In this document: positions 9,522 to 31,783 of the stretch, piece by piece
Numbering within the stretch: the first letter of the stretch is position 1
How the letters are laid out: each line of letters begins with the position of its first letter
NCBI GenBank assembly: GCA_044221555.1
Contig: JBGAOY010000012.1
Coordinates: forward strand, 5,055-69,054
DNA from: Acidimicrobiales bacterium
GTDB taxonomy: Bacteria > Actinomycetota > Acidimicrobiia > Acidimicrobiales > DATDAH01
Reading direction: 5' to 3'
Length of the DNA stretch: 64,000 nt
Translations under genes and position numbers: made by a program
Notes under the pieces: generated by a model
What the model was told of the DNA's origin: nothing
What the model saw: the letters and a program-made list of their open reading frames with translations, nothing else
Databases searched by the model: none

Positions 9522-9576
9522 TCGCAGTGCCACCTCCCGGCCCGCTGTCTCCGCGCCGAGTCCCAGGAGCGCCGAC

Positions 9577-10530
9577 GTGACCCCAACGGCCACGGCCGTG
9601 GTCGAGACGCGGCGGCTCACGAAGCGGTTCGGGGTCATCGAGGCGGTGGTCGATCTCGACCTGAGCGTGGAGGCCGGTGAGGTGTTCGGGTTCCTCGGGC
9701 CGAACGGGGCCGGCAAGACCACCACCACCCGCCTGCTGCTCGACGCCATCCGGCCCACCGCGGGGTCGGCCACCGTGTTGGGTGGCACCGCGGCCGATCC
9801 CGAGGTGCGCCGACGCATCGGCGTGCTGCCCGCCGACCTGCACTTCGACGCCCGGCTGACCGGTCACGAGCTGTTCCGGTACCTCGCCGACCTGCGGGGC
9901 GGCCTGCCCGCGCACGCCGTCGACCGGCTCTGCGAGCGGTTCGCGCTCGACCCCGGCCGCCGCATCGACGAGCTCAGCACGGGCAACCGGCGCAAGGTCG
10001 GCATCGTGGCCGCCTTCGCCCACCACCCCGAGCTCCTCGTGCTGGACGAGCCCACCAGCGGTCTCGACCCGATCATGCAGGAGGAGTTCCACGACCTCGT
10101 CCGCGAGCGGAACGCCGACGGTGCCACGATCTTCCTCAGCTCGCACCTCCTGCCCGAGGTGCAGGAGATGGCCGACCGGGTGGGCCTGATACGCGACGGC
10201 CGCCTCATCGCGGTCAAGACGGTGGCAGACCTGCTCCGCCAGCGCCTGCAGCACCTCGAGATCGAGCTGCCGGACACGCCACCGGCCGGCGCCTTCGCCG
10301 GCGTGCCCGGTGTCGTCGACGCCGCGGTCACCGGGAAGGTCGTGCTGCTGTCGGTCGAAGGCCCGGTGCACCCCGCTTTGGCCCGTGCCGCCGAGCTCCG
10401 GGCCGAGCGCCTCACGAGCCGCCAGCCCGACCTCGAAGCGGTGTTCCTCGACATCTATCGTCCTGGCAACGGCGGGGGCGCTCGCCCCGCGGGTGGTGTC
10501 CCGGCCGGTGACGAGGGGGATGCGCCATGA
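9577..10530 (+). CDS. ABC transporter ATP-binding protein (ABC-2 type exporter)
   Basis: Walker A GPNGAGKTT, signature LSTGNRRK, Walker B LLVLDEPTSGLD. Confidence 0.9.
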   Translation: MTPTATAVVETRRLTKRFGVIEAVVDLDLSVEAGEVFGFLGPNGAGKTTTTRLLLDAIRPTAGSATVLGGTAADPEVRRRIGVLPADLHFDARLTGHELFRYLADLRGGLPAHAVDRLCERFALDPGRRIDELSTGNRRKVGIVAAFAHHPELLVLDEPTSGLDPIMQEEFHDLVRERNADGATIFLSSHLLPEVQEMADRVGLIRDGRLIAVKTVADLLRQRLQHLEIELPDTPPAGAFAGVPGVVDAAVTGKVVLLSVEGPVHPALARAAELRAERLTSRQPDLEAVFLDIYRPGNGGGARPAGGVPAGDEGDAP

Positions 10531-11345
10531 GCGCGCACCGCGCGGTCACGGTCGCCCGCCGCCTGCTGGTCGATCGCCGCCGCTCGCTGCTCTGGTGGAG
10601 CGTGGCGTTCGTGGTGTTCATCGAGATCAACCTGGTCTTCTACCCGAGCGTGAAGGGCCAGGACGACTTCGACCGGATGATGGAGCAGATGCCCGAGAGC
10701 CTGCGGGTGTTGTCCGGCATCACCGAGAACACCTCCATCACCTCGCCCATCGGCTACCTGCAGGGCCAGGTGTTCGCGATGTGGTTCCCCCTGTTGCTGC
10801 TCATCTTCGGCGTGGGACTGGCGGCCAACGCGATCGCGGGCGCCGAGCAGGCCGGCACCCTCGAGTACCTGCTCACGCTGCCGGTGCGGCGGCGCGAGGT
10901 GGCGGCCGGGCGGATCGGCGCCCTCGTCACGCTGCTGCTGGTGATGGCGGTGATCGGGACGGCCTCGCTCGTCATCACCGACCCGCTCGTGGGGCTCGAC
11001 GAGGGCATCTCGTACCCCAACCTGCTCGCCGCCTGCGTGGAAGGGTTGCTGCTGGCGCTCGTGTTCGCGTCGCTCGCGTTCGCGGTGGGCGCGGCGACGG
11101 GTCGCAAGGCGGAGGCCATCGCGGTGGCCAGCGCCGCCGCCGCGGCGGCGTTCCTCCTCAACGGCTTCGGTGACCTGATCGACCTGCTCGGGACGCTGCG
11201 AGTGGTGTCACCGTGGCACTGGTACGTGGGCAGCGAGCCGCTGGTGAACGGCTTCACCCTGTTCAGCACCGTGCCCCCGTTGCTCACGTCGGCGGTGCTC
11301 TTGGCGATCGGCGTCTGGGCGTTCGACCGCCGCGATCTGCGCTGA
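10527..11345 (+). CDS. ABC-2 family transporter permease
   Basis: ATGA overlap with the ATPase gene. About six hydrophobic segments and 272 aa. Confidence 0.8.
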   Translation: MSAHRAVTVARRLLVDRRRSLLWWSVAFVVFIEINLVFYPSVKGQDDFDRMMEQMPESLRVLSGITENTSITSPIGYLQGQVFAMWFPLLLLIFGVGLAANAIAGAEQAGTLEYLLTLPVRRREVAAGRIGALVTLLLVMAVIGTASLVITDPLVGLDEGISYPNLLAACVEGLLLALVFASLAFAVGAATGRKAEAIAVASAAAAAAFLLNGFGDLIDLLGTLRVVSPWHWYVGSEPLVNGFTLFSTVPPLLTSAVLLAIGVWAFDRRDLR

Positions 11346-11408
11346 GCCCGGCGATGTCGTTCCCGCCACGCTGCTTCATCAGGCGGGCCGGACTGCCGAA
11401 GGCTTCTG

Positions 11409-14195
11409 GTGCGGCCTCACGACGTCCTGACCGGTGACCTCGAGCGTGCCGATCGGATGCCCGACGATGTCGAGCGTGGTGGCCTCCTCCTCGATGACCT
11501 GCTCCTCGATGTGCGCACACTCGTTCCACTGGCTCGCCTGCAGGCCGACCGAGCCGAGTGGCTGGACACGCTCTTCCTGCTCGCGGCGATCACCCAGGTG
11601 CTCGATGACGGTCTCCACCGGAGCCGTACGTGGACGAAGCGGCTGACCGAGCACCTCGAGCGGGGCCATGGACGACCGGGCCGGGCGGTCGCCGTCGCCA
11701 CCCAGGGGATGAGCGCGGTCCGGGGTCGCCTCGACGAGACCGGTCGGCGGCACCGTGAGCTCGTCGACCGGCGCGATCAGATCGTGGGGATCACGGTGCG
11801 CGTGGCCGAGGTGGTGCTCGGGCAAGACGAAGCGTCCGATGGGCTCGGACCGGCGGTGGCGGCGGTCCTGGGGGGGACCTGGTCAGAGGAGCTGGACGGC
11901 GTGCTGACCGTCCCCTCGTGTTTCCGCGGTTTCGACCAGCACCCGGTCGACATGGTCGCCCTCGCCCACGACATCGCCCAGCGCCAACCCGACCGCTCCC
12001 GGTCGGTCACGGTCTTCGGCGTTCGCACGTCCGGCTCCTACCTCGCTCCGCTCCTCGCCGCGGCGCTCCGGGCCGAGGGGTACGCCACGGAGGCGTCCGC
12101 CCTGCGACCGACCGACCACCTCGACCGCGGGCAGCGCGCGGCGGTCAAGCGTCTCGGGGACCGCGGCCTGGCCGTCGTGGTCGACGACCCTCCGGTGTCG
12201 GGCGGTGCCCTGGCGGACAGTGCCGATCTCGTGATCGCCTGCGGGATCGCGCCGTCGCAGGTGCTCATCGCGATCGGGGTCGACGATCCCCACGCCAGTG
12301 TGCCGCCCGCCCTCGAGGGGCGACCGGTGGTGGTGCTGCCTGGCGAGCGCTGGCATCTGGCCGGCCGGTTCTCGGCCAGTGCGGTGCACGCGACGCTCCA
12401 GTGTCTCCTCGGCCCCGGCCCGACGGTGGCCGAGGTGGAGGCGATCGACTGGCCGGGGCCTCCGCACCCCGAGGTCGCGGCGACGGCGCGGCGCCGACAC
12501 GGGCGGGGTGCCTATCGGGTCGTGCTCCGTCACGAGGACGGGCGGGAGCAGCGTCGCACCCTGCTCGTCGAGTCGGTCGGGCCGGGCCTGTTCGGCGGGC
12601 ACGCGCTGGCCGTGGCCCGTCGCCTCCACGGCTTCGTGCCGGAATCCCTCGCGTTGGTCGACGGATGCCACTACCAGTGGCTCCCGGACGAGGTGGCCCC
12701 AGGCGCTCACCTGGTCCCGGTCGACCCGTCCTCCCTCACGGGCTACCTCGTGGCCCGCCACCGGGCGTTGCCGGTGGAGGTCGACCGTACCCTCGCCTTG
12801 GAGGGCCGCCAGTCGGTCTGGGAGGTGGCGGCCGAGGTGCTGAGCGACGCCCTCGGACCGGCGGGAACGGCCTTGCGGCCCCGTGTGGTGGGCCCGGCGG
12901 TGCGCAGGATCCTCGCGGTGCCCGCACCGTCGATCATCGACGGTCGCATGGACCTCGACGCGTTCCTCCTGTCATCCGAGCGGGCACCGGTGGTGAAGCT
13001 GGCGGCCTCGGAGGGAGCGTTCAGCCACCGTGACCTTGCCTCCTATGATCCCGCGTTCGACGTGGCGGCGGTGGCCGACTCGCCGATCGGCTCCGCCGTG
13101 CGCCGCGGGTGGGAGGACGTGGTCGGCCGGCACATCGAGCCCGAGCGGTGGCTGCTCCTCCGGTTGGTGCACGGATGGGACCGCCGGCGTCACGGCGCGT
13201 CGTCGGCCGCCACGCGCGACGCGGCCCGACGGGCGCTGCAGGACTACCTGGGTGAGGTGGCGCTCTCGGGGCTGCCCGAGCCCGGACCGCAGGCGCCGGT
13301 CGCCGCCCTCGACGTCGACGGCGTGCTGGAGACCTACGTCCTCGGGACCGGCGCGCCGGGCCTCGACGGCATCCTGGCCCTGCGGGCCCTGCTCGCGCAC
13401 GGCCACCGGGTGGTGCTGGCGACGGGCCGCTCGGCGCCGGATGTGGCGGCTCGCCTTGCCGCCTGGAACCTGCCGGTGGGCGTGGCCGAGTACGGGGCTG
13501 CGCTCGTGGACGGCGCTTCCGGCGTCGTGACGGACCTGCGCGACGAGCGGGACCGGGTGACCATGGCCTCGGTCCGCGAGGCCGTGGCGGCGATCGACGG
13601 CGTCCGGATCGACCCGGACTACGTCCACATCGTGCGGGCCTACCGCGAGTCGGCGGGCGGGCGCACCGGATTGACCGATGCCGACCTCCGGCGCGTACGT
13701 CGGGCCCTCTCAGAACCAGATGCGCTCACCGTCGTGCCGGGCGAGGACCAGACCGACCTCACGCCCGTCGCCTGCACGAAGGCGAGTGGGCTGCGTGCGG
13801 CGCTGAGCTCGGACATCTCGCCGGTCGTCCCGCGAGTCGGCGAACCGAGGGGCGTCCCACTGGCGCTGGCGGTCGGCGATGGCCCGGCTGATCTGGGGAT
13901 GCTCGCTCTGGCCGAGCGGGCCGTGGTTCCCCGGCACGCCCGGGCCTTGGCCCGTGATGCCGCGCGGGAGGTCGTCGTGGCCCGGCACGCCTACCAGGCG
14001 GGTCTTGCCGAGGCGGTGGCCGGCTCGGTCGGCCACGAGCCCGGTGGGTGCCCGACCTGTGCGCTCGACCTGAGCCCCGCGGCCCGGTTCGTGCTCGCCA
14101 CCCTCTCGCTGCGGGCGGCGGGGCCCGCGGCCATCGGACCTCGGCTGGCCGCGGTGGCGACGACGGCGGCGGCCGTGTGCCGCGCCGGCGGCTGA
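11409..14195 (+). CDS. multidomain protein: PRTase-like domain + central HRD-containing region + C-terminal HAD-IIB phosphatase; start codon uncertain
   Basis: PRPP-loop-like LAVVVDDPPVSGGAL. HAD motifs are LDVDGVLE (nt 13308..13331), VLATGRS, TKASGL and AVGDGPADLGML. The first ~180 nt have better GC3 on the opposite strand; alternative in-frame starts are GTG 11598 and ATG 11709. Confidence 0.65.
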   Translation: MRPHDVLTGDLERADRMPDDVERGGLLLDDLLLDVRTLVPLARLQADRAEWLDTLFLLAAITQVLDDGLHRSRTWTKRLTEHLERGHGRPGRAVAVATQGMSAVRGRLDETGRRHRELVDRRDQIVGITVRVAEVVLGQDEASDGLGPAVAAVLGGTWSEELDGVLTVPSCFRGFDQHPVDMVALAHDIAQRQPDRSRSVTVFGVRTSGSYLAPLLAAALRAEGYATEASALRPTDHLDRGQRAAVKRLGDRGLAVVVDDPPVSGGALADSADLVIACGIAPSQVLIAIGVDDPHASVPPALEGRPVVVLPGERWHLAGRFSASAVHATLQCLLGPGPTVAEVEAIDWPGPPHPEVAATARRRHGRGAYRVVLRHEDGREQRRTLLVESVGPGLFGGHALAVARRLHGFVPESLALVDGCHYQWLPDEVAPGAHLVPVDPSSLTGYLVARHRALPVEVDRTLALEGRQSVWEVAAEVLSDALGPAGTALRPRVVGPAVRRILAVPAPSIIDGRMDLDAFLLSSERAPVVKLAASEGAFSHRDLASYDPAFDVAAVADSPIGSAVRRGWEDVVGRHIEPERWLLLRLVHGWDRRRHGASSAATRDAARRALQDYLGEVALSGLPEPGPQAPVAALDVDGVLETYVLGTGAPGLDGILALRALLAHGHRVVLATGRSAPDVAARLAAWNLPVGVAEYGAALVDGASGVVTDLRDERDRVTMASVREAVAAIDGVRIDPDYVHIVRAYRESAGGRTGLTDADLRRVRRALSEPDALTVVPGEDQTDLTPVACTKASGLRAALSSDISPVVPRVGEPRGVPLALAVGDGPADLGMLALAERAVVPRHARALARDAAREVVVARHAYQAGLAEAVAGSVGHEPGGCPTCALDLSPAARFVLATLSLRAAGPAAIGPRLAAVATTAAAVCRAGG

Positions 14196-14235
14196 GAAGG
14201 CTCGCATCTGGCGCGCATCCGCCGATGGGTCCACG

Positions 14236-14670
14236 GTGGTCGTGTGGATCGTCGCCAACCTGCTGCTTGCCGTGGCCGTGGTCGTGGTGGTGCGGCGCTG
14301 GTGGATGGCACGGCTGGCCGTCGCACCGCTCGCCGACGCGCCGGCGGTCACCATTCGCGCACGCGGCTTCCATGAGGAGGCGCTCGACCGTGCCCTGCAG
14401 CGGGCACTGCGTGACACCGGCCTCGACGCCATCGACGATCACGACCCTCGGTGGAGCCACCCGCCGCCCGGGATCGTGCGGATCGCGCCTCCGCTGCTCG
14501 ACGACCGGGCCGTGGTCATCGAGGTGGCGGTCGACTCCGCGGAGGATCTGCTCGCGGGTCTGGTGAGGGCCCTGCTCGACGCGGGGTGGGAGATCAGCCG
14601 GACGAAGGGACGGAAGGTGACGCTGCGCCGGAGCGGGCTGACGGCGCGGCTGTCGGTGGCGCCGGCGTGA
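14236..14670 (+). CDS. hypothetical N-terminally membrane-anchored protein
   Basis: High GC3 frame. N-terminal hydrophobic helix VVWIVANLLLAVAVVVVV. No recognisable motif. Confidence 0.6.
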   Translation: MVVWIVANLLLAVAVVVVVRRWWMARLAVAPLADAPAVTIRARGFHEEALDRALQRALRDTGLDAIDDHDPRWSHPPPGIVRIAPPLLDDRAVVIEVAVDSAEDLLAGLVRALLDAGWEISRTKGRKVTLRRSGLTARLSVAPA

Positions 14671-14798
14671 CCCTCACGTCGCTCACCGTCGCGCGGTCGG
14701 CGCCCCCGAGGTGTGGAGGTGAGAGCGCGACGTCGTTGACCATGGCCCAGACGGTGAGCAGCAGGCCGACCACGAGGGCGTAGCGGCGGTCAACCCGG

Positions 14799-14972
14799 TC
14801 ACGCACCGCGGGCCACCAATTCAGCGACGCGGAGGAGGACCACGACGGCGAACCCGAAGGTGACCGGGACCAGCATGCGATCGAGCACCCGAAGCGCGGG
14901 CGCGTCACGGCGGGTGAGGCGTACCGCCTCGCGGGCGGCCAGCAGCACGACGAAGAGGGCGCCCGTGATCAT
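14799..14972 (-). CDS. 57-aa hydrophobic mini-protein (MITGALFVVLLAA...), coupled to upstream gene
   Basis: It forms the tail of track ORF 14799..15638. Its ATG 14972..14970 overlaps the TGA 14971..14969 of the 107-aa ORF (ATGA). Two hydrophobic segments. Confidence 0.45.
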   Translation of the reverse strand: MITGALFVVLLAAREAVRLTRRDAPALRVLDRMLVPVTFGFAVVVLLRVAELVARGA

Positions 14973-15292
14973 GGCGTGCCGGCCGGCGCGGGCTCGAGCA
15001 GCACGCCGCTCACGGTCACCCCAGCCAGGATCAGCACGGCAGGGAGCAGTCCCGATGCGCCGAACAGCAACAGCACCTCCGCCACCACCGCGTCGAGGGC
15101 GAGGCTGAGGGCCACGGCGACCGTGACCAGCTCGACCGGGCCGTGCACGGGGAGCCGGGGCGCCCATGCCAGGCCCGGGGCCACCAGGAAGAACGCCACC
15201 GCCACCGCCGCGCGGAGCGGCGCCGGCGTGAAGGGGATGGTGACCGCCACGGCCAGGCCCGTCAGGGCCAGTAGGACGCGCGCCCGGGTCAC
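14969..15292 (-). CDS. 107-aa integral membrane protein (about 3 TM), coupled to the giant upstream gene
   Basis: GTG 15292..15290 overlaps the TGA 15291..15289 of the giant ORF (GTGA). Strongly hydrophobic sequence. Confidence 0.6.
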   Translation of the reverse strand: MTRARVLLALTGLAVAVTIPFTPAPLRAAVAVAFFLVAPGLAWAPRLPVHGPVELVTVAVALSLALDAVVAEVLLLFGASGLLPAVLILAGVTVSGVLLEPAPAGTP

Positions 15293-18200
15293 GAGTCGCG
15301 CCCCGCGAGCGTGAGCACGACGGCGTCGCGGTTGCGGTAGGCCACGTCGAACCGACCCGAGGCCATGAGCCGGTCTTCCATGTCCTCGAGGAAGTGGTCG
15401 GGTCGGTAGCCCATCGCCTCGGCCTCACGCTCCTGGCTGCGGGTGATGAGCAGGTACGCGTCCGTGTCGTCGGGATCGGACATCCACCGGACCATGGTGC
15501 CCACCGGGTGGCGGGCGATGCCCTCTCGGCTGGCGAGGGTCTCGGTGTCGAGCGGGACATACCTGAAGTACTCGTAGTTGCGGAACTGGACCGGGTAGTT
15601 CGAAGAGCCTTGGATGAGCAGTGACCCTGGCGGCGCATGGTCGTCGAGCCACTCGGCGGCGGCGAGCTCCTGGTGGGTGAAGACGTAGTGGCCGTCCTTG
15701 CCGAAGTGGGCGAGCAGGAACCCCGGCAACAGCACGAGGCTCACCACGAGCGGTGCGACAGCGGCGAGACGGCCTCTCATGCGGGGGATGTCGAGGATGG
15801 CCTGGGCGCCGAACCACGCCGCCACCGGCAGAGCGAACAAGTAGACGCGGAAGAGGATCTCACCACCGAATTCGTTGGTGGCCAGGATCACCAGCGGTGC
15901 AGCACCGAGGACGGCCATCGTCATGGTGGCCTCACGGTCGCGACGCCACGCTCGCGCCATGCCGACCGCGGCGAGCAACGCGATGACCGCGACCACGCCC
16001 CGCCCCGCGAGTGCGACGAGGGCCTGACCGCCGCTCACCTTGCCGGCGTCGACCAGGCTGCCCTCGGCGTTGGCCATCGGGGACCCGAATCCCTCGAGCA
16101 CCATCTTCACGTTGGCCACGACGAAGTCGGCAGCGCCCCAGAGGGCCCAGGTCACGGTGACCACCACCGCGACGAGGGACACGACCAACAGATGGGCGCG
16201 GCGGCTCACGGTCAGGGCGATCAGCGCGACACAGAGCATCGCCGGCGTGATCTGATGGCTGGTCGCGATGGCGATGGTGAGCAGGATCACCACCAGGACG
16301 GTCAGGTCGGGGGATCCGCTTCTCGGCGCCCGGGTGCCCCTGGCCCGGGACACCCGCACCGCCAGCGACACCGCCACCAGATAGAGCAGGTAGGACAGCG
16401 CCTGGGGTGAGAAGTACTCCTGGCCCACCCAGTCGCCGAGGAGGAAGATCCACGCCGTCAGCCAGACCACCCGACGGTCGGTGGTGAACGTGCCGGCGAG
16501 GAGGCACACCCCGCCCACCGTGGCCAAGGTGACGACCAGGGGTGCCCACCGAGCGACGACGGTGACGTCGTCGGCGCCCATCCACGTCTGCAGCAGGTGG
16601 CTCCCTGCGAAGAACCCGGGCCAGTTGTGGTAGATCGGCAAGACCTCGATCCCCGGATCGACCGCGCCGTGACGGCCGATGAAGTCGACGATCCCCATGT
16701 GCTTCCATGCCCATGAATATCGGACGGTCGGGTAGATCACCGCCGGCGTCGCGAACAGCACGACGGCGAGCGCCCCGACATGGGTGGCCACGAGACCTTC
16801 GGGGAAGGGCCGGCGGGCCAGTGCGAGCGCGAAGCCGAGCGCGAGGGTGGCGACGGCCAGATAGCCCACCGGGCGTATGCCCGACACCAGGCCGGTGTCG
16901 GTGAGCGACCTCGGGTCGACGCCCGCGACACCCGCGAACCACATGAGGACGGCGACCGGTGGCACCGCCCACGCGGCGAGAGCGGTGTGGCGACGCCAGC
17001 GATGGTCCCGCGGGCGATCGGGAGCCAGGGCCGAGGTCGCCGACGCCGGTACGCGTGACGGCGACGACGGGTCGTCCGGATCGGTGGGGCCCTGCGGTCC
17101 GGACGGCACGCGCCGGTCGACCGTTCCGCGCGCCGGCGCGTTGACCAGTTCCTCGCCGAGTGCCGGAGCGCCGGTCGGGACGGGTGCAGGGGTCGCCTCC
17201 GTGGGCATCGCGAGCGCGTCGGCCACGGTGAGCACGTTGCGCGCGATCCACACCCGGTTCGCTTCGTACTGGCCCGACTTGCCCAGGTTCGCGGCGACGT
17301 GGTGCAGCCAGGCGAGCAGGACGAGCGCAGGGCGGGGCAGGTGGCTGTTCGGGCCGCGGTCGAGGACCGCGATCTCGTCCTCGTTCCAGGGACGCTGGAG
17401 GAGGGCGAGGACCACCTCGCCGAACTCCTCGGTGCGCAGCTGGGCTCGCAGGCCGGCGATGAGGCCGACGAGGTCGAGCTCGGGGAGGCGCTCGGACCGG
17501 GCGATCTCCCAGTCGACCAGGCCGGCCACCCGGCCCGACCGTTCGACCACGAGGTTCGCGGGCGACACGTCACCGTGGGTGAGTGCCACCGTCACCGCTC
17601 GACCGGCGAGCACGCGGTGCAGGGTGCGGGTGAGGTCGGCAAGCCCGGGTGCCGCATCGGGGCAGGCCGCGACCACCAGCGCAGCCGGCTCGTCCACCCA
17701 CATCCTCAGGAGCCGGTCGTCCACCGTCGTCAGCTCACCGGTGGCTCGGTGCAGGCCGAGGAGCAACTCGCCGGCACCGGCGAGCAGGCGGTCGGGGCTC
17801 ATACCACCCTCGAGTGCGGGGCCACCGGCGAGGCCGTGGAGCATGGTCTCGACCGACCACGCCTGTGGCCCGACCGTCCCGTGATCGACGAGCGCCGGTG
17901 CTGCGACCGCCCACCGCTTCGTGCGCGGGTCGCCCCGGAGCGCGACGAGCGTGGCCATCTCACGCCGTCGGCTCAACTCGGCCTCGTGGGTGCGCGGCAG
18001 CTTCAACACCAGTTCGGGTCCCGTCGGGGGGGACAGTCGTGCAATGGCCACGTCGGTCGTGACGTGGAGCAGCGACCACGACGTGGTGTCCGGTCGTGCC
18101 ACCCGCAGCAGGCCCGGGATGATCGCCGCGGCCTCCCGCCGGCACCGGCGGTCGGCGAGCCGTCCCGCCGGTGCGCCGATCCAGCGGATCATCGGTGTGG

Positions 18201-19614
18201 GCAGGGCCCGAACCCAGACGTCGCGCATCGGTACGACCAGCACCCACGCGGCGACTGCCATCTGGACGGCCAACCAGGACACCCCGGTGGCGGTCACCCC
18301 GAACACGGGCACCATCACGGCGCTACCGACCAGGAGGCCGGTGCACGCGACCGCGTACAGGCGTACGACCGCGGCGATGCGCCGCTGGGCCCGCTCCACG
18401 TTCACGTAGAGGATGCTCACGACATAGGGGATGGACGACAGCGCCATGAGGCGGAGCAGCGGGCTCGCGTCGGCGGCGTACTGGCTGCCGAAGATCGAGA
18501 GGATCACGGGCGCCCCGAGGGCGACCACCAGTGCCGCGGGCACGACCAGCACCAGCGACATCGTGAACGCCCTACGGGTATTGGCCTCGAGCTGGTGGGC
18601 GTCGTGGGCGGACTCCGCGACCAGGGCCGAGCCCACGGCGCTGGGGATCAGGTAGAGGGTGTACGCAACCGTCCACGCGAGGCTGTACCAGGCGTTGGCC
18701 CGTGCCCCGGCGAGCGCGAGCACCAGTAGGGGCAGACCGTCGATGGTCAGCAGCCACACGGTGGATGCCGCATAGTCACCGGCGGAGAAGCGGACGAGAT
18801 CGCGGAGCGTGACCTCCTCGCCCGAACCCGTCGCGCCTCGGCGCAACCAGGTGAAGATCGGGATGTTGACCGCGACCACAACCACCAGCAACGGGGCGGA
18901 CCACGACACGTAGATGCCCCATTGCGGCATCGAGGTGGTGAGGGCGACGAGCAGCGCCAGCTTGGCCGACGCGAACAGTGCGTTCTCGACGGGGAGCCAC
19001 GACGAGCGGCGCAGGCCGATCAGCACGCTGTCCTGGAGGATGAACAGCACCCAGAGAACGGTCGACACCAGGAAGAACGCCGCGCCGGGGGACTGGTCCA
19101 GCAGGGTGAGCTCGGGGAAGAACCGGCCGTGGACCGCGACGAAGAGCGCGGCCGCGACCAGGGCGATGGTCCCCGTGACGGCGTAGGACACGGCGACGAC
19201 CCGCCCCACCCGGTCACCGAGGCTCGGGACGAAGCGGATGAGCGCGGTGCGCAGCCCGAGGTTGGCCACCGCCGCGATGAGCTCCATGGACGCGAGCAGG
19301 CCCGCGGTGGCGCCCACCGCGGCCGGCGAGTAGCGACGGGCGGCGAGCGACCAATAGGCGAGGCCCAGGACCGAGGTGACACCGGCGCTGGTGATGAGAT
19401 GCGCGCCCGATCGCACGAGGGGCGAGTCGCGCTGCAGGTTCAGGCGGTCGCGGAGGCTCGGCCGACCGGCGCCGCCGGCGATCGCATCGCCCCGGGTCAC
19501 GTCGATCGAATCCAACTGGCCCCCGCCGTTCTGTCTACCGCGCTGCCGGAATACCACGCTCTGTGAGCTAGATCGTCCGAAACCGACCTGAGTTGACCCT
19601 CCAAACTCGGGCAT
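15289..19614 (-). CDS. giant fusion protein: Wzx/PST-like polysaccharide flippase domain + APH-type phosphotransferase (kinase) domain + second polytopic GT-C-like membrane domain with soluble C-terminal tail
   Basis: Track ORF 15289..20055 trimmed to ATG 19614, because the upstream part crosses a low-GC intergenic region and overlaps gene 19720. The N-terminal multi-TM region resembles polysaccharide biosynthesis/flippase proteins (ITSAGVTSVLGLAYWSLAARRY...LGLRTALIRFVP). The kinase motifs are VLKLP, HGDVSPAN (nt 17577..17554) and VDWE. A Pro-rich linker is followed by about 10 or more hydrophobic segments and a ~140-aa soluble end. Confidence 0.8.
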   Translation of the reverse strand: MPEFGGSTQVGFGRSSSQSVVFRQRGRQNGGGQLDSIDVTRGDAIAGGAGRPSLRDRLNLQRDSPLVRSGAHLITSAGVTSVLGLAYWSLAARRYSPAAVGATAGLLASMELIAAVANLGLRTALIRFVPSLGDRVGRVVAVSYAVTGTIALVAAALFVAVHGRFFPELTLLDQSPGAAFFLVSTVLWVLFILQDSVLIGLRRSSWLPVENALFASAKLALLVALTTSMPQWGIYVSWSAPLLVVVVAVNIPIFTWLRRGATGSGEEVTLRDLVRFSAGDYAASTVWLLTIDGLPLLVLALAGARANAWYSLAWTVAYTLYLIPSAVGSALVAESAHDAHQLEANTRRAFTMSLVLVVPAALVVALGAPVILSIFGSQYAADASPLLRLMALSSIPYVVSILYVNVERAQRRIAAVVRLYAVACTGLLVGSAVMVPVFGVTATGVSWLAVQMAVAAWVLVVPMRDVWVRALPTPMIRWIGAPAGRLADRRCRREAAAIIPGLLRVARPDTTSWSLLHVTTDVAIARLSPPTGPELVLKLPRTHEAELSRRREMATLVALRGDPRTKRWAVAAPALVDHGTVGPQAWSVETMLHGLAGGPALEGGMSPDRLLAGAGELLLGLHRATGELTTVDDRLLRMWVDEPAALVVAACPDAAPGLADLTRTLHRVLAGRAVTVALTHGDVSPANLVVERSGRVAGLVDWEIARSERLPELDLVGLIAGLRAQLRTEEFGEVVLALLQRPWNEDEIAVLDRGPNSHLPRPALVLLAWLHHVAANLGKSGQYEANRVWIARNVLTVADALAMPTEATPAPVPTGAPALGEELVNAPARGTVDRRVPSGPQGPTDPDDPSSPSRVPASATSALAPDRPRDHRWRRHTALAAWAVPPVAVLMWFAGVAGVDPRSLTDTGLVSGIRPVGYLAVATLALGFALALARRPFPEGLVATHVGALAVVLFATPAVIYPTVRYSWAWKHMGIVDFIGRHGAVDPGIEVLPIYHNWPGFFAGSHLLQTWMGADDVTVVARWAPLVVTLATVGGVCLLAGTFTTDRRVVWLTAWIFLLGDWVGQEYFSPQALSYLLYLVAVSLAVRVSRARGTRAPRSGSPDLTVLVVILLTIAIATSHQITPAMLCVALIALTVSRRAHLLVVSLVAVVVTVTWALWGAADFVVANVKMVLEGFGSPMANAEGSLVDAGKVSGGQALVALAGRGVVAVIALLAAVGMARAWRRDREATMTMAVLGAAPLVILATNEFGGEILFRVYLFALPVAAWFGAQAILDIPRMRGRLAAVAPLVVSLVLLPGFLLAHFGKDGHYVFTHQELAAAEWLDDHAPPGSLLIQGSSNYPVQFRNYEYFRYVPLDTETLASREGIARHPVGTMVRWMSDPDDTDAYLLITRSQEREAEAMGYRPDHFLEDMEDRLMASGRFDVAYRNRDAVVLTLAGRDS

Positions 19615-19636
19615 CGACAGGACAGTACACGAGAAA

Positions 19637-19665
19637 TTCCTCAAGTTCCCACTTAGGGTGACGAT
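19637..19665. promoter_or_regulatory. conserved ~30-nt motif, copy A, at the head of the giant-gene operon
   Basis: TTCCTCAAGTTCCCACTTAGGGTGACGAT versus TTCCTCAAGTTCTCACCTTAGGTGGTCGAT at 28319..28349. The first 12 nt are identical. Both lie in low-GC divergent intergenic regions just upstream of minus-strand glycan genes. Confidence 0.5.
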
Positions 19666-19719
19666 GAATAACACCCTTCGCGCTCGACTACGACCACTCC
19701 ACGTGATATCCACGTCGGT

Positions 19720-22254
19720 ATGGCGAACCGATGCAGCACGATCCCCCGGACGGTGGCGGCCGTCGTGGCGGTGCTCAGCATCCCCGCGGCCCTGGTGGCG
19801 TCGACCGAGCCGAGTGCCGCAGCGGCGACCATCGTGTCCCGAGGGGCGACCCAGACGGCATGGGCGTCCGAGTCGACGGCCGCGCTCAGGGTCCAGCCGC
19901 CTCCGACCGCTCAGGCCGGGGACCTGCTCCTCGCCACGCTCGGTGTCGGCAGGACCGGTGCATCGAGCCAGCCGGTCCTCACGGCCCCGAGCGGGTGGAC
20001 CCTCGTCTCGCGCACCAACCAGGGCGCGACCGCCACCCTGGCGGTGTACCGACACACGTTCGTGGCGGGCGAGACCACCTACACCTTCACCTCGAGCTAC
20101 TCGGTCGGCGGGGTGGGGTTCGTGGTCGCGTTCGGCGGTGTCGATGCCACCCAGCCGATCGACGCGTCCGCGGGACGAACGGTCGGCAAGGGCACCTCGG
20201 TGCCCACGCCGTCGGTGACCACGACGGCTCCGGGAGACAAGGTCGTGGCCGGCTACTTCGGATACCGCGGGTCGGGCGGCCCGCGCTGGTCGGCCCCGTC
20301 CGGCCTCACCGAGCTGGGCGACATCGGGAACGGCAGTCGGTCCGGCTCGATCGACGTCGGCGAGCAGGCGTCGGTCGGGTCCACCGGGGCCAAGGCGGCG
20401 ACGGTGGACGGCCGCATCGAGTACGGCATCGGCGTCATCGTCGCCCTACGCCCGGCCACGATCACCACGACGACGCCGCCGGTCATCAGCGGCCTTGCCG
20501 CAGGCGGGGTGACGTCAGTGTCGGCGGTGGTCACGTGGACGACGGACCAGCCTGCCGACTCGCGAGTCGAGTACGGCACCACGACGGCGTACGGGTCGAG
20601 CACGTCGACCGACGCGACGCCGGTCACCAGCCACAGCGTGATGGTCTCGGGCCTGGCGCCCGACACGACCTACCACGTGCGAGCGGTCAGCGCGAACACC
20701 GCGGGGCAGTCCACCGCGAGTGCCGACCTGACCGTCCGCACGCCGGCGGGACCCCCCTCGAGCGGTCGGACGCCGCTGATCATCGACACCGACATGTTCA
20801 GCAGTGCCGACGACGTCGGCGCGTTGGCAGTGGCGTTCGGGCTCCAACTCCGCGGCGAGGCCGATGTGATCGGCATCGCCCTCGACACCCGGACCAGCCG
20901 CCCGGCCGTGGCGACGAACTCCTGGCGTTGCGCTGCCGCGATCGCGCAGTTCTACGGCGACCCGACGGTGCCGATCGGCACCCACCTGCCCAACAACGGG
21001 AGCGAGGTGAACACCATCGACTGGATCCGCCCGTGCGCCCAGCGGGCGGCCTCGTCCACGCCGACACCCAGCGACGCGCTGAGCATGTACCGCCGGGCGC
21101 TGGTCGCCCAGCCCGACACGAGCGTGGTCATCGCGTCGGTCGGGTACACGCAGAACCTCCGCGATCTGCTCGACTCACCGGCCGACGCCATCAGCCCCCT
21201 GTCGGGTCGCGACCTGGTCGCCCGGAAGGTGCGCAACCTCGTGATCATGGGTGGGGGCTTCCCGGCCTCGGCCGGCGAGAACAACCTGGTCGGGGACCCG
21301 GCCGCGGCGAAACGGGTCGCCGGCGGCTGGCCCGGCCGCATCGTGTGGTCGGGCTACGAGGTCGGTGACGCGGTCCAGACCGGCGCGACGATCTCCACCG
21401 TCCACCCGGCCAACTCTCCCGTGCGCATCGCCTACGAGGCCTACGTCGGGCCCCGCAAGTGGATCGACTCGTACGACCTGACGGCCGTCTACCACGCCGT
21501 GCGACCCACCGATCCGGTGTACGGCCTCGTCGGCCCCGGGACGAACGTGGTCAGCAGCACCGGGGCCAACACCTTCACCGCGGGGGCCGGCAACCAGTAC
21601 TACCTGAGGCTCCCCAACGATCTCGCCGCAGAGTCGAAGATCGAGGAGTTGCTCGACGTCCTGCCGGGGGCCACGAGCAGCGGTCCTGTGGACAGCTTCT
21701 CCACCGGCACGATCGACCCGGCCCGGTGGAACGTGGGCGGCAGCGGCTCGACGGTGGCCGCAGCCAATGGGCAGCTCGAGATCGCCCATGCCGCCGGGGC
21801 GTGGACGAACGGCTCGCTGACCACGACCGCGACCCACGACCAGACCGGACGATCGGTGCAGCTCCGCGTCCGGCGGGCGGCGAACAACGGCCTGGGCGGC
21901 TCGAGCTTCGGCGAGACATCGATCCGGCTCCAGGTCGACACATCGCACTACGCCGAGTTCTTCGTGGCCGGCGGGGCGATCTCGGCCTGGGTCAACCAAG
22001 GCAGCGGCGCCTCGAACCTGACACCGAGCTGGCCCGCCTACTCGTCGACGACGATGCAGTGGCTCCGGTTTCGGGAGTCCGGGGGCCGGCTGTACCTGGA
22101 GTACGCCTCCGGCTCGTCCGCGCCGGGAACCTGGCAGGCCCTGGCGTCGGTCGCCAACCCGTTCCCACTCAACGCCGTGCGCCTGGCCATCATCGCCGGC
22201 GCCAACACGCCCGTGACGGACGTCGCACAGTTCGACGATGTCTCGACCTACTGA
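19720..22254 (+). CDS. secreted multidomain protein: unknown N-terminal domain, FN3-like domain, inosine-uridine nucleoside-hydrolase-like domain, C-terminal lectin/LamG-like domain
   Basis: Signal peptide VAAVVAVLSIPAALVAS. FN3/PAP-like VVTWTTDQPADSRVEYGTT...YHVRAVSAN. IUNH-like N-terminal motif LIIDTDMFSSADDVGALAVA. High GC3. Confidence 0.8.
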   Translation: MANRCSTIPRTVAAVVAVLSIPAALVASTEPSAAAATIVSRGATQTAWASESTAALRVQPPPTAQAGDLLLATLGVGRTGASSQPVLTAPSGWTLVSRTNQGATATLAVYRHTFVAGETTYTFTSSYSVGGVGFVVAFGGVDATQPIDASAGRTVGKGTSVPTPSVTTTAPGDKVVAGYFGYRGSGGPRWSAPSGLTELGDIGNGSRSGSIDVGEQASVGSTGAKAATVDGRIEYGIGVIVALRPATITTTTPPVISGLAAGGVTSVSAVVTWTTDQPADSRVEYGTTTAYGSSTSTDATPVTSHSVMVSGLAPDTTYHVRAVSANTAGQSTASADLTVRTPAGPPSSGRTPLIIDTDMFSSADDVGALAVAFGLQLRGEADVIGIALDTRTSRPAVATNSWRCAAAIAQFYGDPTVPIGTHLPNNGSEVNTIDWIRPCAQRAASSTPTPSDALSMYRRALVAQPDTSVVIASVGYTQNLRDLLDSPADAISPLSGRDLVARKVRNLVIMGGGFPASAGENNLVGDPAAAKRVAGGWPGRIVWSGYEVGDAVQTGATISTVHPANSPVRIAYEAYVGPRKWIDSYDLTAVYHAVRPTDPVYGLVGPGTNVVSSTGANTFTAGAGNQYYLRLPNDLAAESKIEELLDVLPGATSSGPVDSFSTGTIDPARWNVGGSGSTVAAANGQLEIAHAAGAWTNGSLTTTATHDQTGRSVQLRVRRAANNGLGGSSFGETSIRLQVDTSHYAEFFVAGGAISAWVNQGSGASNLTPSWPAYSSTTMQWLRFRESGGRLYLEYASGSSAPGTWQALASVANPFPLNAVRLAIIAGANTPVTDVAQFDDVSTY

Positions 22255-22338: not shown

Positions 22339-23262
22339 TCAGGTACCGGCACTCGACGAGGGGTCGGTGCTCCAGGGGGGTTGCCAGACCCGGATCCAGT
22401 CAGCGCGCACGGCGGCCGGGAACACGGTCGTCGCGTCCGGCGGCCCGGGGTAGTCGCCACCGACGGCGAGGTTCAGGACCAGATACATCGGCTCGCTGGG
22501 CACCAGGTCCCCCGTCACCTGCCAGCGGGCCCGGCCGTCGACGATCCAGGTGATCCGGTGGGGTCGCCATTCCACCGCGAAGCGGTGCCACCCCTCGGCC
22601 AGGTCGGGCCCGCGGAAGGTGTGCCCCAGTGAGCGATAGACCGCGCCCTGGCGGTAGTGCAGGTGGAACCGGGCCGCTGTCGTGTCGTCATTGATGGTCT
22701 CGAGGACGTCGATCTCCGGTGTGGAGTCCTCGTCGGCGGGCAGCAGCCAGAACGCGGGCCACAGCCCGGCACCTGCGGGGATCTTCAGACGGGCCTCGAC
22801 ATAGCCATAGGTGAACGTGTAGCGGGCCGGTCGGCCCTCGACGCTGTACGCGGGGCCCGTGGTCACCATGCCGGACGTGTACTCGAACCGCCGCCCGTCG
22901 GGGACCTCGATGTGCTCCGGTCGGGCCTCGAGCCGGAGGCGCCCGGCGGACACGCTCACGTTGCCCGGCCGGTACCACTCCAGCTCGTTGTTGGTGGCGA
23001 TCGTGCAGCCGCCGTCGACGGCCCACCAGTGGCAGTCGTTCCACCGCCCGGGGGCGACCCGTTGGCCGTCGAACCCGTCGCTGAACGCCAGGTGCCAGGA
23101 GGCCGGAACGGGTCGGACGGTGCCGTCGAGCGTTCGACTCGTGATCGTGGGCTCGATTCCCGGAGTCGCACGGAGCCGGCCGCCTGCCATCACGAGGGCG
23201 ACGAGGGCGCCGGCCACCGCGAGCGTGAAGCGCCGCCGGCGGCGCCTGCGGCCGGTACTCAC
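22339..23262 (-). CDS. glycoside hydrolase family 16 (beta-glucanase/laminarinase-like), exported
   Basis: Catalytic motif EIDVLE within DSTPEIDVLETIND. N-terminal RRRRRR plus a hydrophobic signal-like segment. Confidence 0.85.
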   Translation of the reverse strand: MSTGRRRRRRRFTLAVAGALVALVMAGGRLRATPGIEPTITSRTLDGTVRPVPASWHLAFSDGFDGQRVAPGRWNDCHWWAVDGGCTIATNNELEWYRPGNVSVSAGRLRLEARPEHIEVPDGRRFEYTSGMVTTGPAYSVEGRPARYTFTYGYVEARLKIPAGAGLWPAFWLLPADEDSTPEIDVLETINDDTTAARFHLHYRQGAVYRSLGHTFRGPDLAEGWHRFAVEWRPHRITWIVDGRARWQVTGDLVPSEPMYLVLNLAVGGDYPGPPDATTVFPAAVRADWIRVWQPPWSTDPSSSAGT

Positions 23263-23295: not shown

Positions 23296-24393
23296 CTAGT
23301 CCTCACGGAACCCGACGATCGACTTGACCGCGCTGCGCAGCGCTCGGTCGGTGCGGGTGATCGGGAGGCGCTCGACGCGGTAGTCGAGGTAGTCCACCGA
23401 GCGGGCGCCGTAGTGCTCCTTGTAGCGAGCGAGGGTGGTGGACGTGCCGCTCTCGCCCAGGTGCAACACCTGGCAGCCGGCGCGGGCCGCGTCGAGGATC
23501 GCCTGCCACTGGATCAGGAAGGTGGCGCGTGTGGGTGCCGCCAGGTCTCGGTCCATCGCACCGCGCGTGTCGTGGGCGGTGTTGCCGAACAGGACGATCT
23601 GGCCTGCGGCCGGCACGTCGTCCACGTACGCGAGGTAGAGCCGGAACCGGTCGCCGAGGCAGTGGGCGATGGTCTGGAGCTTGGCCAGCGGGTCACGGCG
23701 ACGGCCTCGCCACCGGGCCATCCAGACCGGCTCGTGGCTGCTGGCGGCCCACCGTTCGAGCGACCGCTCGTAGAGCCGGTAGTAGTCCGCCAGCCGATCG
23801 CCGTTCGCGTCACACTCCACCCGCAGTCCGGCCTTCTCGGCCTTGCGCAGGGCTCCGCGGGCACTCGAATGCATGTTGGCACGGAGCGCCTCCTCGCCCA
23901 CCGTGAGGTCGAGCACGTGGGCGCGCTTCGTGGTCGTGAGCACCGAGGACGGCGCGCCGGTGGCCCACAGTCGGGCTTCCAGCGGATCGGGTCGGATCCG
24001 GGTGAACACGTCTCGACGCGACTCGAGGTCGGTGAGCACCAGGCGCACCGCATCGGCGTCCTTCTGGGGCCCGACGAGCCCTCCGAACCCCCAACCCTCG
24101 GGGAAGGACGCCGACACCCCGGCCACGCGAGCAGGGCCCGTGCGTCGGATCAGCGGTAGGACGAAGCGTCGGCCGTCGGAGAGCTGGTAGAGCCGGCTGA
24201 CGTCGCGGTAGGGCGCGCTCGCGACGATGGCGTCGGTCCACTCCGGCGAGTGGTCGGCCATCGATCGTGGGTCCTCACCCACCAGTGCCGACCACACCTC
24301 ACGGGGTGCCGGTGACACGACACTGTCGATGGTGACCGCAGCGTTCGGGCGCGACGGGGCGGCGCCCCCCGGAGCGGCGTCGAGGAGTGTCAC
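23296..24393 (-). CDS. FemAB/CelD-like GNAT-fold acyltransferase (BioF2-like acetyltransferase domain)
   Basis: Track ORF 23296..24867 trimmed to GTG 24393..24391, which overlaps the upstream TGA (GTGA). The C-terminal half (LYLAYVDDVPAAGQIVLFGNTAHDTRGAMD...LHLGESG...LARYKEHYGA) resembles FemAB/CelD-type acyltransferases. Confidence 0.7.
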   Translation of the reverse strand: MTLLDAAPGGAAPSRPNAAVTIDSVVSPAPREVWSALVGEDPRSMADHSPEWTDAIVASAPYRDVSRLYQLSDGRRFVLPLIRRTGPARVAGVSASFPEGWGFGGLVGPQKDADAVRLVLTDLESRRDVFTRIRPDPLEARLWATGAPSSVLTTTKRAHVLDLTVGEEALRANMHSSARGALRKAEKAGLRVECDANGDRLADYYRLYERSLERWAASSHEPVWMARWRGRRRDPLAKLQTIAHCLGDRFRLYLAYVDDVPAAGQIVLFGNTAHDTRGAMDRDLAAPTRATFLIQWQAILDAARAGCQVLHLGESGTSTTLARYKEHYGARSVDYLDYRVERLPITRTDRALRSAVKSIVGFRED

Positions 24394-28307: not shown

Positions 28308-28318
28308 TTTTCCCACCT

Positions 28319-30066: not shown

Positions 30067-30566
30067 TGCAGACCACCACCGTCCCCACACCCGCCGGCCC
30101 CTTCACGATCGTCGCCGAGGCCGAATCCGGCACCGTGCTGGCCTCGGGATGGACCGACGACGCCGACGTGCTGGTGGCGCTGATCGCCCCGGCACTGCGG
30201 CCCGTCGCCCTCGAGCACGTCGACGACCTCGGGTCGGTCACCGATGCCGTGGCGGCCTACGTGGACGGCGACCTGGGCGCCGTCGACACGGTCGCCGTCC
30301 GCCAGGCGTCGGGGCCATTCCTCATGGAGGCGTGGGCGGTGCTGCGCCAGGTGCCCGCCGGTGCGCCCGTCACCTACGCGGAACTGGCGGCGAAGGCCGG
30401 CCGGCCCGATGCCGTGCGGGCCGCCGCCAGTGCGTGTGCCCGCAACGCCGCGGCCCTGTTCGTGCCCTGCCACCGGGTGGTGCGCACCGGTGGCGGCCTC
30501 GGCGGCTTCCGGTGGGGGCTCGACGTCAAGTCGTGGCTGCTCGACCACGAGGCACCCGGCGCCTGA
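30066..30566 (+). CDS. ogt: O6-methylguanine-DNA methyltransferase
   Basis: Active site PCHRVV, 166 aa. The ATG overlaps the upstream TGA (TGATG). It is the tail of track ORF 28569..30566. Confidence 0.9.
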   Translation: MQTTTVPTPAGPFTIVAEAESGTVLASGWTDDADVLVALIAPALRPVALEHVDDLGSVTDAVAAYVDGDLGAVDTVAVRQASGPFLMEAWAVLRQVPAGAPVTYAELAAKAGRPDAVRAAASACARNAAALFVPCHRVVRTGGGLGGFRWGLDVKSWLLDHEAPGA

Positions 30567-30716: not shown

Positions 30717-30765
30717 AGGTGAGCTGACCGCGGGCGCACATTCTGGCGGCGCACACTCGCAGCGC

Positions 30766-31596: not shown

Positions 31597-31688
31597 GCCG
31601 CACTCTCTACTGCATGGCGTACTGCACGGCGACTGGCGCTGGGCGGGTGCCGGCGGTCGGCACCGGGCCCGTGGGTGGTCCGGACGCG

Positions 31689-31721: not shown

Positions 31722-31783
31722 GCTATCGGCGGTGTCAGGTGCCGCCGGGCACCCCGGGCCGGGTCGGGCCGGTCAGGCGCCCG

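Follow-up and report, generated by a model that had tools for sequence, protein, structure and literature searches.

A single gene in the genome of an Acidimicrobiales bacterium joins a predicted Wzx-type flippase, a kinase of the APH family and a predicted GT-C-fold glycosyltransferase in one polypeptide. It lies in a 64,000-nucleotide stretch of DNA (GenBank assembly GCA_044221555.1, contig JBGAOY010000012.1, positions 5,055 to 69,054; hereafter, the window). On balance, we consider it probable that the product forms the membrane-crossing (export-and-attach) end of a conserved polyprenol-phosphate-linked glycosylation pathway, with the kinase acting on the lipid-linked glycan. The best reading of the protein is a fused, kinase-bearing variant of the transmembrane glycosylation systems of the GacIJKL, Wps and Arn types. 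The gene and its parts are as follows (window coordinates; aa, amino acids).

15289-19614, minus strand: fusion gene, 1,441 aa from ATG 19614, with its stop codon at 15289-15291
18235-19455, minus strand: predicted Wzx-type (MOP superfamily) flippase module, aa ~54-460, 12 long helices
17209-18084, minus strand: APH-family kinase domain, aa ~511-802
16978-17208, minus strand: linker rich in proline and serine, aa ~803-879, of low model confidence
15703-16977, minus strand: predicted GT-C-fold membrane glycosyltransferase module of the 13-helix type, aa 880-1304, beginning with VDPRSLTDTG
15292-15702, minus strand: soluble alpha/beta domain at the C-terminus, aa 1305-1441, with a predicted extracytoplasmic location

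These five parts had been named in an earlier reading made from the letters alone (the sequence-only reading), and all were present in the translation, including the VLKLP, HGDVSPAN (nucleotides 17577-17554), VDWE and VDPRSLTDTG motifs. The frame is open on the minus strand from 20055 down to the stop codon, in a window of 70-75% G+C. Because the codon-position GC pattern of this frame disappears upstream of ~19,600 and a divergent plus-strand gene begins at ATG 19720, we placed the start at ATG 19614; an alternative start, GTG 19557, yields a protein of 1,422 aa that is 100% identical to database protein P0001 from a public NCBI assembly. Third-position GC remained between 0.80 and 0.98 in a single frame from 19500 to 15300, unbroken at the domain junctions, indicating that the open reading frame (ORF) carries no frameshift signature. 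The sequence-only reading had named assembly or frameshift artefacts as something to exclude. An artefact of this kind would have joined two or three adjacent genes into one long ORF, and the flippase-kinase part and the GT-C part are indeed separate, adjacent genes in most other lineages. It is nevertheless exceedingly improbable: codon-position GC is continuous over both junctions, the linker can be aligned among homologues, and the fusion recurs, with its three-module order intact, in ~20 independent assemblies encoding full-length homologues (36-90% identity) as well as in Devosia genomes. The flippase-kinase-GT-C fusion is therefore real. A scan of 14400-20000 for promoter and terminator consensus sequences found nothing.

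Because sequence profiles from Pfam, NCBIfam and the Protein Data Bank (PDB) recognized only the kinase, we predicted structures with AlphaFold 2 (AF2) from homologue alignments, treating residues 20-830 and 880-1441 separately. The model of residues 20-830 had a predicted local distance difference test (pLDDT) score of 89.2 and a predicted template modeling (pTM) score of 0.79. In Foldseek, the top match of its flippase portion was the lipid III flippase WzxE (9g9n; E = 2.3e-7; TM-score of 0.75 on the target), followed by MATE/MOP transporters, and MurJ was absent from the top 50 matches of the flippase-kinase model. The modeled N-terminal module has a MOP fold of 12 transmembrane (TM) helices resembling solved Wzx structures. 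Among homologues, P0035 scored 29.1 bits and P0027 scored 27.2 bits against Polysacc_synt (PF01943; cut-off, 28.2 bits), a family to which the window protein had no match, and some distant homologues carry the JGI name "O-antigen/teichoic acid export membrane protein." By its predicted fold, the assignment of this module as a Wzx-type flippase is supported. An amphipathic linker helix (aa ~473-506) follows it.

The kinase was the only part of the protein that Pfam and NCBIfam recognized. Over aa 532-719 it matched PF01636 (APH) at E = 2.8e-14, scoring 53.9 bits where the cut-off is 23.2. Its fold matched APH(3')-Ia and APH(3')-IIa in Foldseek (TM-score of ~0.65 on the target), and a profile of 29 homologues run against PDB sequences returned only macrolide and aminoglycoside phosphotransferases, with Mph(2') (5igh) at 1e-6. 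In the alignment with Mph(2'), HGDVSPAN and VDWE fall on its HGD...IDW. The APH catalytic set lies at homologous positions: the beta3 lysine is K538 of VLKLP (nucleotides 18003-18001), the HxDxxxxN loop is H680-G-D682...N687 (17577-17554), and the metal-binding aspartate is D701 of D701-W-E (17514-17506). Among 54 APH domains from homologous loci of several phyla, His680 and Trp702 were each conserved in 100%, Asn687 and Asp701 in 94% and Asp682 in 93%, with lysine or arginine at position 538 in 91%. Judged by this alignment, the pattern is that of an active enzyme and not of a pseudokinase. The linker that follows falls below a pLDDT of 50 at model residues 788-811 and ends in a basic stretch, RPRDHRWRRH, immediately ahead of the first GT-C helix.

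The model of residues 880-1441 (pLDDT, 89.4; pTM, 0.91) showed a polytopic GT-C fold with a C-terminal outside domain (class A). All 18 of its PDB matches at E <= 1e-3 in Foldseek were GT-C enzymes (probability, 1.0; TM-score, 0.43-0.56), including AftA, human STT3, DPY19, archaeal AglB, ArnT and PglB, and ArnT gave the best symmetric TM-scores (0.54/0.56). WaaL matched with a probability of 0.21 and TM-scores of 0.19-0.24. The soluble tail is placed where ArnT and PglB have their periplasmic domains and accompanies the GT-C module in all architectures described below. Membership in known sequence families was rejected: the protein has no WWDXG motif, a tail of only ~137 aa and no Pfam STT3 match, which argues against STT3/AglB/PglB, and the module alone had no Pfam or NCBIfam match at E <= 10 to ArnT, PMT, PMT_2 or AftA families. 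A GT-C-only profile run against 5.8 billion proteins returned 208 proteins and reached no named GT-C family; of the 120 that were listed, a few bore generic names or those of fusion partners and the others were "hypothetical protein" or had no name. None of the 120 carried a Pfam domain on the GT-C module. An exhaustive phmmer search of 1.84 billion representatives at 50% identity found 2,776 GT-C relatives at E <= 1e-3, of which 1,083 reached E <= 1e-30; their lengths cluster at ~600 aa (stand-alone) and at 930-1,070 and 1,300-1,465 aa (fusions). Taken with the model, these results support a GT-C-fold enzyme from a sizeable family without a curated model.

Within this family, 79 homologues share invariant residues at G908, R965, H972, W998-P999, F1002, W1062, G1064, Y1067, P1070, Q1071, H1120, W1156, R1256 and P1263, with E1252 in 99% and aspartate or glutamate at position 1066 in 99%. 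Two motifs stand out, W998-P-G-F-F and W1062-x-G-Q-[ED]-Y-F-S-P-Q. The first outside loop contains an aspartate or glutamate within aa 898-907 in 77 of the 79, at alternating positions (D906 in 77%, D900 in 58%). Since the flippase has 12 helices, as in Wzx, the kinase would lie in the cytoplasm, and since the basic stretch precedes GT-C helix 1, the D900/D906 loop would lie outside; the models agree with a kinase inside the cell and with a GT-C loop and tail that face outward. The sequence-only reading had likened the three modules to Wzx proteins, to APH kinases with an intact catalytic set and to GT-C enzymes, and each likeness was borne out at the level of the fold, the first also by the distant homologues that touch Polysacc_synt. 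Its expectation that profile searches would place every segment held for the kinase and failed for both membrane modules, which were placed by fold.

At least 585 species in five phyla carry a relative (one genome was scanned per GTDB species). The closest among the matches listed are Microthrixaceae and Iamiaceae metagenome-assembled genomes (MAGs) of the Acidimicrobiia; other carriers include Actinomycetes (Micromonospora, Dietzia, Nocardia, Rhodococcus, Embleya, Streptomyces and Streptosporangium), Alphaproteobacteria (Ensifer, Devosia, Mesorhizobium, Roseibium and Aminobacter), Chloroflexota and Trueperaceae. The sequence-only reading had allowed that the modules might occur in relatives either fused or as adjacent genes. 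With the proteins of the window as queries against the ORFs of 86 loci, we found both, in the following architectures (FLIP, flippase module; GTC, GT-C module; GT2, family-2 glycosyltransferase; GT2b, the second GT2 of the window's gene cluster).

FLIP-APH-GTC, fused: Acidimicrobiia and Devosia
FLIP-APH and GTC in two neighboring genes, overlapping in most cases: ~25 loci, in Chloroflexota, rhizobia and others
FLIP and GTC with no APH detected: Trueperaceae and Thermomicrobiales, and Micromonospora with a separate APH upstream
FLIP-GT2-GTC: Catenulispora (P0031)
FLIP-APH-GT2b-GTC: Nocardia and Rhodococcus
GT2b-GTC with a separate FLIP: Streptosporangium, Nonomuraea, Planomonospora and Embleya

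A FLIP-GTC fusion is also among the alternatives. Two adjacent genes are the usual form of the module, and the full fusion is the form taken in one lineage. On the cytoplasmic side, the slot that separates flippase from GT-C may be empty or may contain a kinase, a glycosyltransferase or both. Because a GT2 is inserted there in other lineages, we argue that the slot holds glycan-modifying catalysts; the insertion of GT2b at the kinase's own slot is the strongest argument that slot enzymes act on the lipid-linked intermediate just before flipping. The alternative fusions among FLIP-APH, GTC, GT2 and GT2b likewise tie all parts to one lipid-linked intermediate.

Programmed read-through between split FLIP-APH and GTC genes was considered and rejected, as 5 of 40 pairs were in the same frame, below the one-third expected by chance. 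The same-frame pairs are those of loci L012, L013, L014, L021 and L045; a single TAG or TAA stands between the frames in four, and in L014 (TGA) a second in-frame stop occurs ~20 nucleotides further on. In L045, a Microthrixaceae MAG, the homologous gene (9065-14645) is broken into many short frames, which probably reflects sequencing indels rather than biology.

The fusion gene is accompanied by a set of genes for glycan synthesis and modification, with one secreted protein encoded on the opposite strand.

27396-28316, minus strand: GT2a, Dpm1/AglJ/ArnC-like, candidate polyprenol-phosphate hexose synthase
26476-27396, minus strand: GT2b, AglG-like GT2 (glucosyl-dolichyl-phosphate glucuronosyltransferase-like)
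25217-26476, minus strand: GT2c, third family-2 glycosyltransferase, without hydrophobic segments
24390-25220, minus strand: polysaccharide-deacetylase-family protein (PF01522, E = 6e-25; NCBIfam PgaB N-terminal domain and HfsH)
23296-24393, minus strand: FemAB/Acetyltransf_6-family acyl- or aminoacyl-transferase
22339-23262, minus strand: GH16 glycanase/transglycosylase, with an N-terminal arginine-rich stretch and a membrane anchor at aa 13-31
19720-22254, plus strand: 844-aa secreted protein with a signal peptide, an fn3 domain and an inosine-uridine nucleoside-hydrolase-like domain

GT2a matched the Pyrococcus dolichol-phosphate mannose (DPM) synthase best in the PDB (5mlz, 1e-14), with ArnC also matched; its best NCBIfam match was AglJ (6.9e-38), alongside dolichol-phosphate (Dol-P) hexose transferase (4e-21), PpgS and ArnC, and it carries a C-terminal membrane helix (aa 281-299). 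The best NCBIfam match of GT2b was AglG (NF041394; 1.2e-62; 212 bits, under the equivalog cut-off of 440). The deacetylase is predicted to be cytoplasmic because it lacks a signal peptide, and GH16 is predicted to act outside the membrane because of its N-terminal anchor. GH16 matched Pfam GH16 and the fungal beta-1,6-glucan-synthesis family SKN1/KRE6 (PF03935, E = 4e-17), and its NCBIfam matches are EglC/ExoK-like; its gene stands immediately ahead of the flippase gene in most loci across phyla.

The same gene set recurs widely: the flippase, kinase and GT-C parts, whether fused or in neighboring genes, always come with an AglJ/Dpm1-like GT2, an AglG-like GT2, a third GT2, a cytoplasmic deacetylase and a membrane-anchored GH16. 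In a 60%-identical relative (locus L001), GT2a, GT2b, GT2c, the deacetylase, FemAB, GH16, the fusion and three small proteins of 106, 66 and 33 aa form one uninterrupted operon of overlapping genes, in that order. The set is also found in a 36%-identical Acidimicrobiales genome and in Catenulispora, as well as in Chloroflexota, Alphaproteobacteria, Actinomycetes and Trueperaceae; on a Rhizobium plasmid, every gene of the set is annotated "hypothetical." No priming phosphoglycosyl transferase of the WecA/WbaP type occurs within 10 kb in three Pfam-annotated loci. The sequence-only reading had linked the fusion to a Dpm1-like GT2 operon, and this conservation across phyla strengthens the link; it had also put that operon downstream, whereas GT2a lies upstream on the same strand. 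Six other Acidimicrobiia loci encode strong orthologues of the 844-aa protein (E of 1e-72 to 1e-231) at differing positions no more than 10 kb from the glycan cluster; in L020 the orthologue is inside the cluster on the same strand. Beyond the cluster, the window at 28450-34963 is syntenic with positions 1-4030 of L001, with genes for an Ada/AlkA regulator-glycosylase, a BrkB-like membrane protein and a 1,059-aa protein of the animal-haem-peroxidase family.

Downstream, the fusion gene is followed by a chain of small overlapping ORFs, which a further gene meets from the other strand.

14969-15292, minus strand: 107-aa mini membrane protein with three to four hydrophobic helices; GTGA overlap (15292-15289) with the TGA stop of the fusion gene
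14799-14972, minus strand: 57-aa mini membrane protein with two hydrophobic helices; ATGA overlap (14972-14969)
14594-14806, minus strand: third mini-ORF, from GTG 14806, overlapping the end of the 57-aa ORF by 8 nucleotides
14236-14670, plus strand: 144-aa protein with one N-terminal hydrophobic helix, convergent to the mini-ORFs

Both overlaps that the sequence-only reading described are present, and the two mini proteins that it named are real; it missed the third. Homologues of the 107-aa protein adjoin the GT-C gene on its 3' side in Acidimicrobiia, Chloroflexota, Micromonospora and Solirubrobacterales and share F-x-L-x2-P-G-x-A and A-L-S-L motifs, marking it, by its conservation, as a genuine partner of the fusion. 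A GacJ/GtrA-like identity was unsupported in the Pfam scan, in which the signal was a weak DUF1616 match in 5 of 12 family members (best E = 7.7e-4). Protein-level homologues of the 57-aa protein were found only in close Acidimicrobiia relatives (L001-3, L007, L008 and L045). The third mini-ORF is likewise conserved only among close Acidimicrobiia relatives, and only over its N-terminal ~30 aa, a single helix: this N-terminus (VRDRVDRRYALVVGLLLTVW) matches a 33-aa ORF of L001 (MRDRVDRRFALALGLVIATW) that has the same 8-nucleotide overlap. Its 3' part overlaps the convergent gene at 14236-14670. The 144-aa product of that gene had no family match, and L001 has the gene in the corresponding place (14919-15353, minus strand).

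We propose the following pathway. GT2a, tethered to the membrane, would load a hexose onto polyprenol monophosphate, and GT2b and GT2c would extend it to a short oligosaccharide at the cytoplasmic face. Like ArnD and HfsH, the signal-less deacetylase would act in the cytoplasm, removing an N-acetyl group, and the amine thus freed may be acylated again by the FemAB-like enzyme. The APH-type kinase, which a helix would hold at the flippase's cytoplasmic end, would then use ATP to phosphorylate a hydroxyl on the lipid-linked amino-sugar glycan, a putative substrate that would be chemically akin to an aminoglycoside. The 12-helix Wzx-type module would flip the finished unit, and the GT-C module, with its acidic loop and tail outside, would transfer or polymerize the glycan onto an envelope acceptor. 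The 107-aa membrane protein, translationally coupled to the fusion, probably acts as a partner in this step, and the anchored GH16 would trim or transglycosylate the product. The 844-aa secreted protein is a possible acceptor or processing partner. Flipping, phosphorylation and transfer may thus be coupled in one chain. We infer the order of these steps, the monophosphate rather than diphosphate linkage, the donor, the kinase substrate and the acceptor. A monophosphate-linked donor is suggested by the similarities of the first two glycosyltransferases, of which GT2a is nearest to DPM synthase, AglJ, ArnC and PpgS and GT2b to AglG, which acts on Dol-P-Glc, together with the lack of a phosphoglycosyl transferase in the three annotated loci.

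Several observations weigh against this pathway. The N-terminal module had no Pfam or NCBIfam match even at E <= 10, whether searched in the full protein or alone, and the C-terminal module had no Pfam, NCBIfam or PDB sequence match, so that the family placement of both membrane modules rests on predicted folds. The AglJ and AglG similarities of GT2a and GT2b are well under the equivalog cut-offs and so do not specify which sugars these enzymes use. In the window, the opposite-strand gene at 19720-22254 parts the fusion gene from the GT2 operon. Position 538 of the kinase, lysine in 76% of the 54 domains, is arginine in 15%. No APH was detectable in the fusion or nearby in L037, L039, L044, L048 and L049, indicating that flipping and transfer do not strictly require the kinase. 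A GH16 endoglycanase is easier to reconcile with a polymer than with the transfer of one oligosaccharide. Finally, we found no description of the fusion, the GT-C family or the cluster in the literature; a candidate paper on Actinoplanes dealt with different clusters.

The endoglycanase also bears on whether the locus instead encodes a classical Wzx/Wzy-type exopolysaccharide pathway on undecaprenyl diphosphate. There, the GT-C module would be the polymerase or ligase, functionally like Wzy or WaaL, GH16 would set chain length, as ExoK does for succinoglycan, and the priming phosphoglycosyl transferase would be encoded elsewhere. Such a pathway would suit a Wzx fold, which is normally tied to undecaprenyl diphosphate-linked oligosaccharides, a GH16 that is nearest to the endo-beta-1,3-1,4-glycanases EglC and ExoK, and three GT2s with modifying enzymes that look like a repeat-unit assembly line. 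We regard it as unlikely, though worth keeping in view: the C-terminal model is strongly GT-C class A and only faintly like WaaL, the chemistries suggested by GT2a and GT2b are those of polyprenol monophosphate, and the conserved core contains no priming phosphoglycosyl transferase, Wzz or polysaccharide copolymerase (PCP). A further reading is that the cluster is a bacterial counterpart of the haloarchaeal Agl route, in which a phosphorylated, de-N-acetylated oligosaccharide on polyprenol monophosphate is transferred en bloc to secreted proteins. The transferase would then be a previously unrecognized GT-C oligosaccharyltransferase family, the 844-aa secreted protein a candidate acceptor and the flippase-tethered kinase a completion checkpoint that licenses flipping. 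We consider this quite unlikely.

Other alternatives concern the kinase. It could be a regulatory or scaffolding module that gates the flippase through nucleotide sensing or docking, like the pseudokinase of MviN, which also sits at the cytoplasmic C-terminus of a MOP flippase; that some lineages dispense with the kinase, and that the catalytic lysine is arginine in some homologues, would both fit such a role. This is doubtful, given that His680, Asp682, Asn687 and Asp701 are conserved to the degree typical of active APH enzymes (93-100%), that the fold is that of APH(3') and not of a Ser/Thr protein kinase, and that other lineages place a bona fide enzyme, GT2, in the same slot, alone or beside APH. 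Fusion by chance of an antibiotic-resistance APH, or of a sugar-1-kinase supplying precursors, to envelope proteins would account for the kinase's nearest PDB sequences and folds, which are macrolide and aminoglycoside phosphotransferases, and for its weak similarity to maltokinase. Its resistance-enzyme equivalog scores are, however, far under the cut-offs (13 bits against 205), its linkage to the flippase, fused or neighboring, is kept across phyla, and no nucleotidyltransferase accompanies it in the three Pfam-annotated loci, all of which make a chance fusion very improbable.

The fusion serves as a Rosetta stone: through it, a GT-C family that lacks annotation can be connected with a Wzx flippase, with a kinase and with a defined group of enzymes in the cytoplasm. 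The GT-C family comprises ~2,800 representatives (50% identity) and was found in at least 585 species, among them rhizobia, Nocardia, Rhodococcus, Dietzia, Micromonospora, Chloroflexota and abundant uncultured Acidimicrobiia. The locus thereby offers a directly testable pathway for an envelope glycan in organisms of soil, wastewater and symbiosis, and, for structural studies of the coupling between flipping and extracytoplasmic transfer, a natural flippase-transferase in one chain. It also suggests a new role for APH-type kinases, the modification of lipid-linked amino-sugar glycans, which may be relevant to how aminoglycoside-resistance kinases evolved.

Mycobacterial MviN/MurJ (Rv3910) consists of a flippase, a pseudokinase and an extracellular domain. 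The window protein resembles it in having a MOP flippase, then a cytoplasmic kinase-fold domain, a further TM passage and an outside domain. It differs in that the flippase is nearest to Wzx, the kinase is of the APH type with intact residues and the C-terminal part is, in the model, a complete GT-C enzyme. With WzxE as the best fold match, MurJ outside the top 50 and the kinase residues intact and conserved, we rejected assignment to the Rv3910 type. The sequence-only reading had called this the only comparable architecture, which proved too narrow, as the GacIJKL and lactococcal Wps systems are closer.

These multicomponent transmembrane glycosylation systems, each with a Wzx-type flippase and a GT-C, are the closest characterized analogues. 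Streptococcus pyogenes GacI/GacJ/GacK/GacL and lactococcal Wps are four-component systems with a Wzx-type flippase, in which a Dpm1-like GT2 loads polyprenol monophosphate and a small membrane protein of ~3 TM helices takes part (PMC10821137). In the lactococcal PSP pathway, WpsA/B make GlcNAc-P-C55, WpsC-F extend the glycan on the monophosphate carrier, WpsG flips it and the GT-C WpsJ transfers it to the wall polymer (PMC10821137). The window locus shares the Dpm1-like GT2, the Wzx-type flippase, the GT-C and the small membrane protein with both systems and the cytoplasmic extending glycosyltransferases with Wps; as in the Gtr, Arn, GacIJKL and Wps systems, a polyprenol-phosphate sugar synthase of the GT2 type, a flippase and a GT-C occur in one locus. 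Here, however, a single chain contains both flippase and GT-C, separated by an APH kinase, its GT-C comes from a family without a Pfam model, and a cytoplasmic deacetylase, a FemAB-like enzyme and GH16 are also present. In addition, the small protein follows the GT-C and not the GT2, and the Pfam scan showed no similarity to the GacJ family.

The lipid A aminoarabinose pathway, ArnC/ArnD/ArnEF/ArnT, has a GT2 that makes a polyprenol-phosphate-linked (N-acyl)aminosugar. An enzyme of the polysaccharide-deacetylase family removes the acyl group at the cytoplasmic face, and a flippase and a GT-C finish the process. The logic of GT2, deacetylase, flippase and GT-C is the same here, whereas Arn transfers a monosaccharide, uses the SMR-type flippase ArnEF and has no kinase, extra GT2s or GH16; the fusion GT-C, moreover, is not a sequence-level member of the ArnT/PMT families. 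N-glycosylation in Haloferax volcanii, through AglJ, AglG, the Wzx-like AglR and AglS/AglB, builds an oligosaccharide on polyprenol monophosphate. The window locus recalls it in its first two GT2s, for which NCBIfam gives AglJ and then AglG as the best matches, following the gene order, in its Wzx-like protein and GT-C transferase, and in the weak likeness of the 107-aa protein to DUF1616, an archaeal membrane family. It departs from the Agl system in its scores under the equivalog cut-offs, in a GT-C without WWDXG or a large C-terminal domain and in its bacterial hosts. The overall logic of the pathway is that of a known kind of system; what is new is the single-chain flippase-kinase-GT-C, the APH enzyme as an integral, widely conserved component, the unmodeled GT-C family and an AglJ/AglG-like pair in bacteria.

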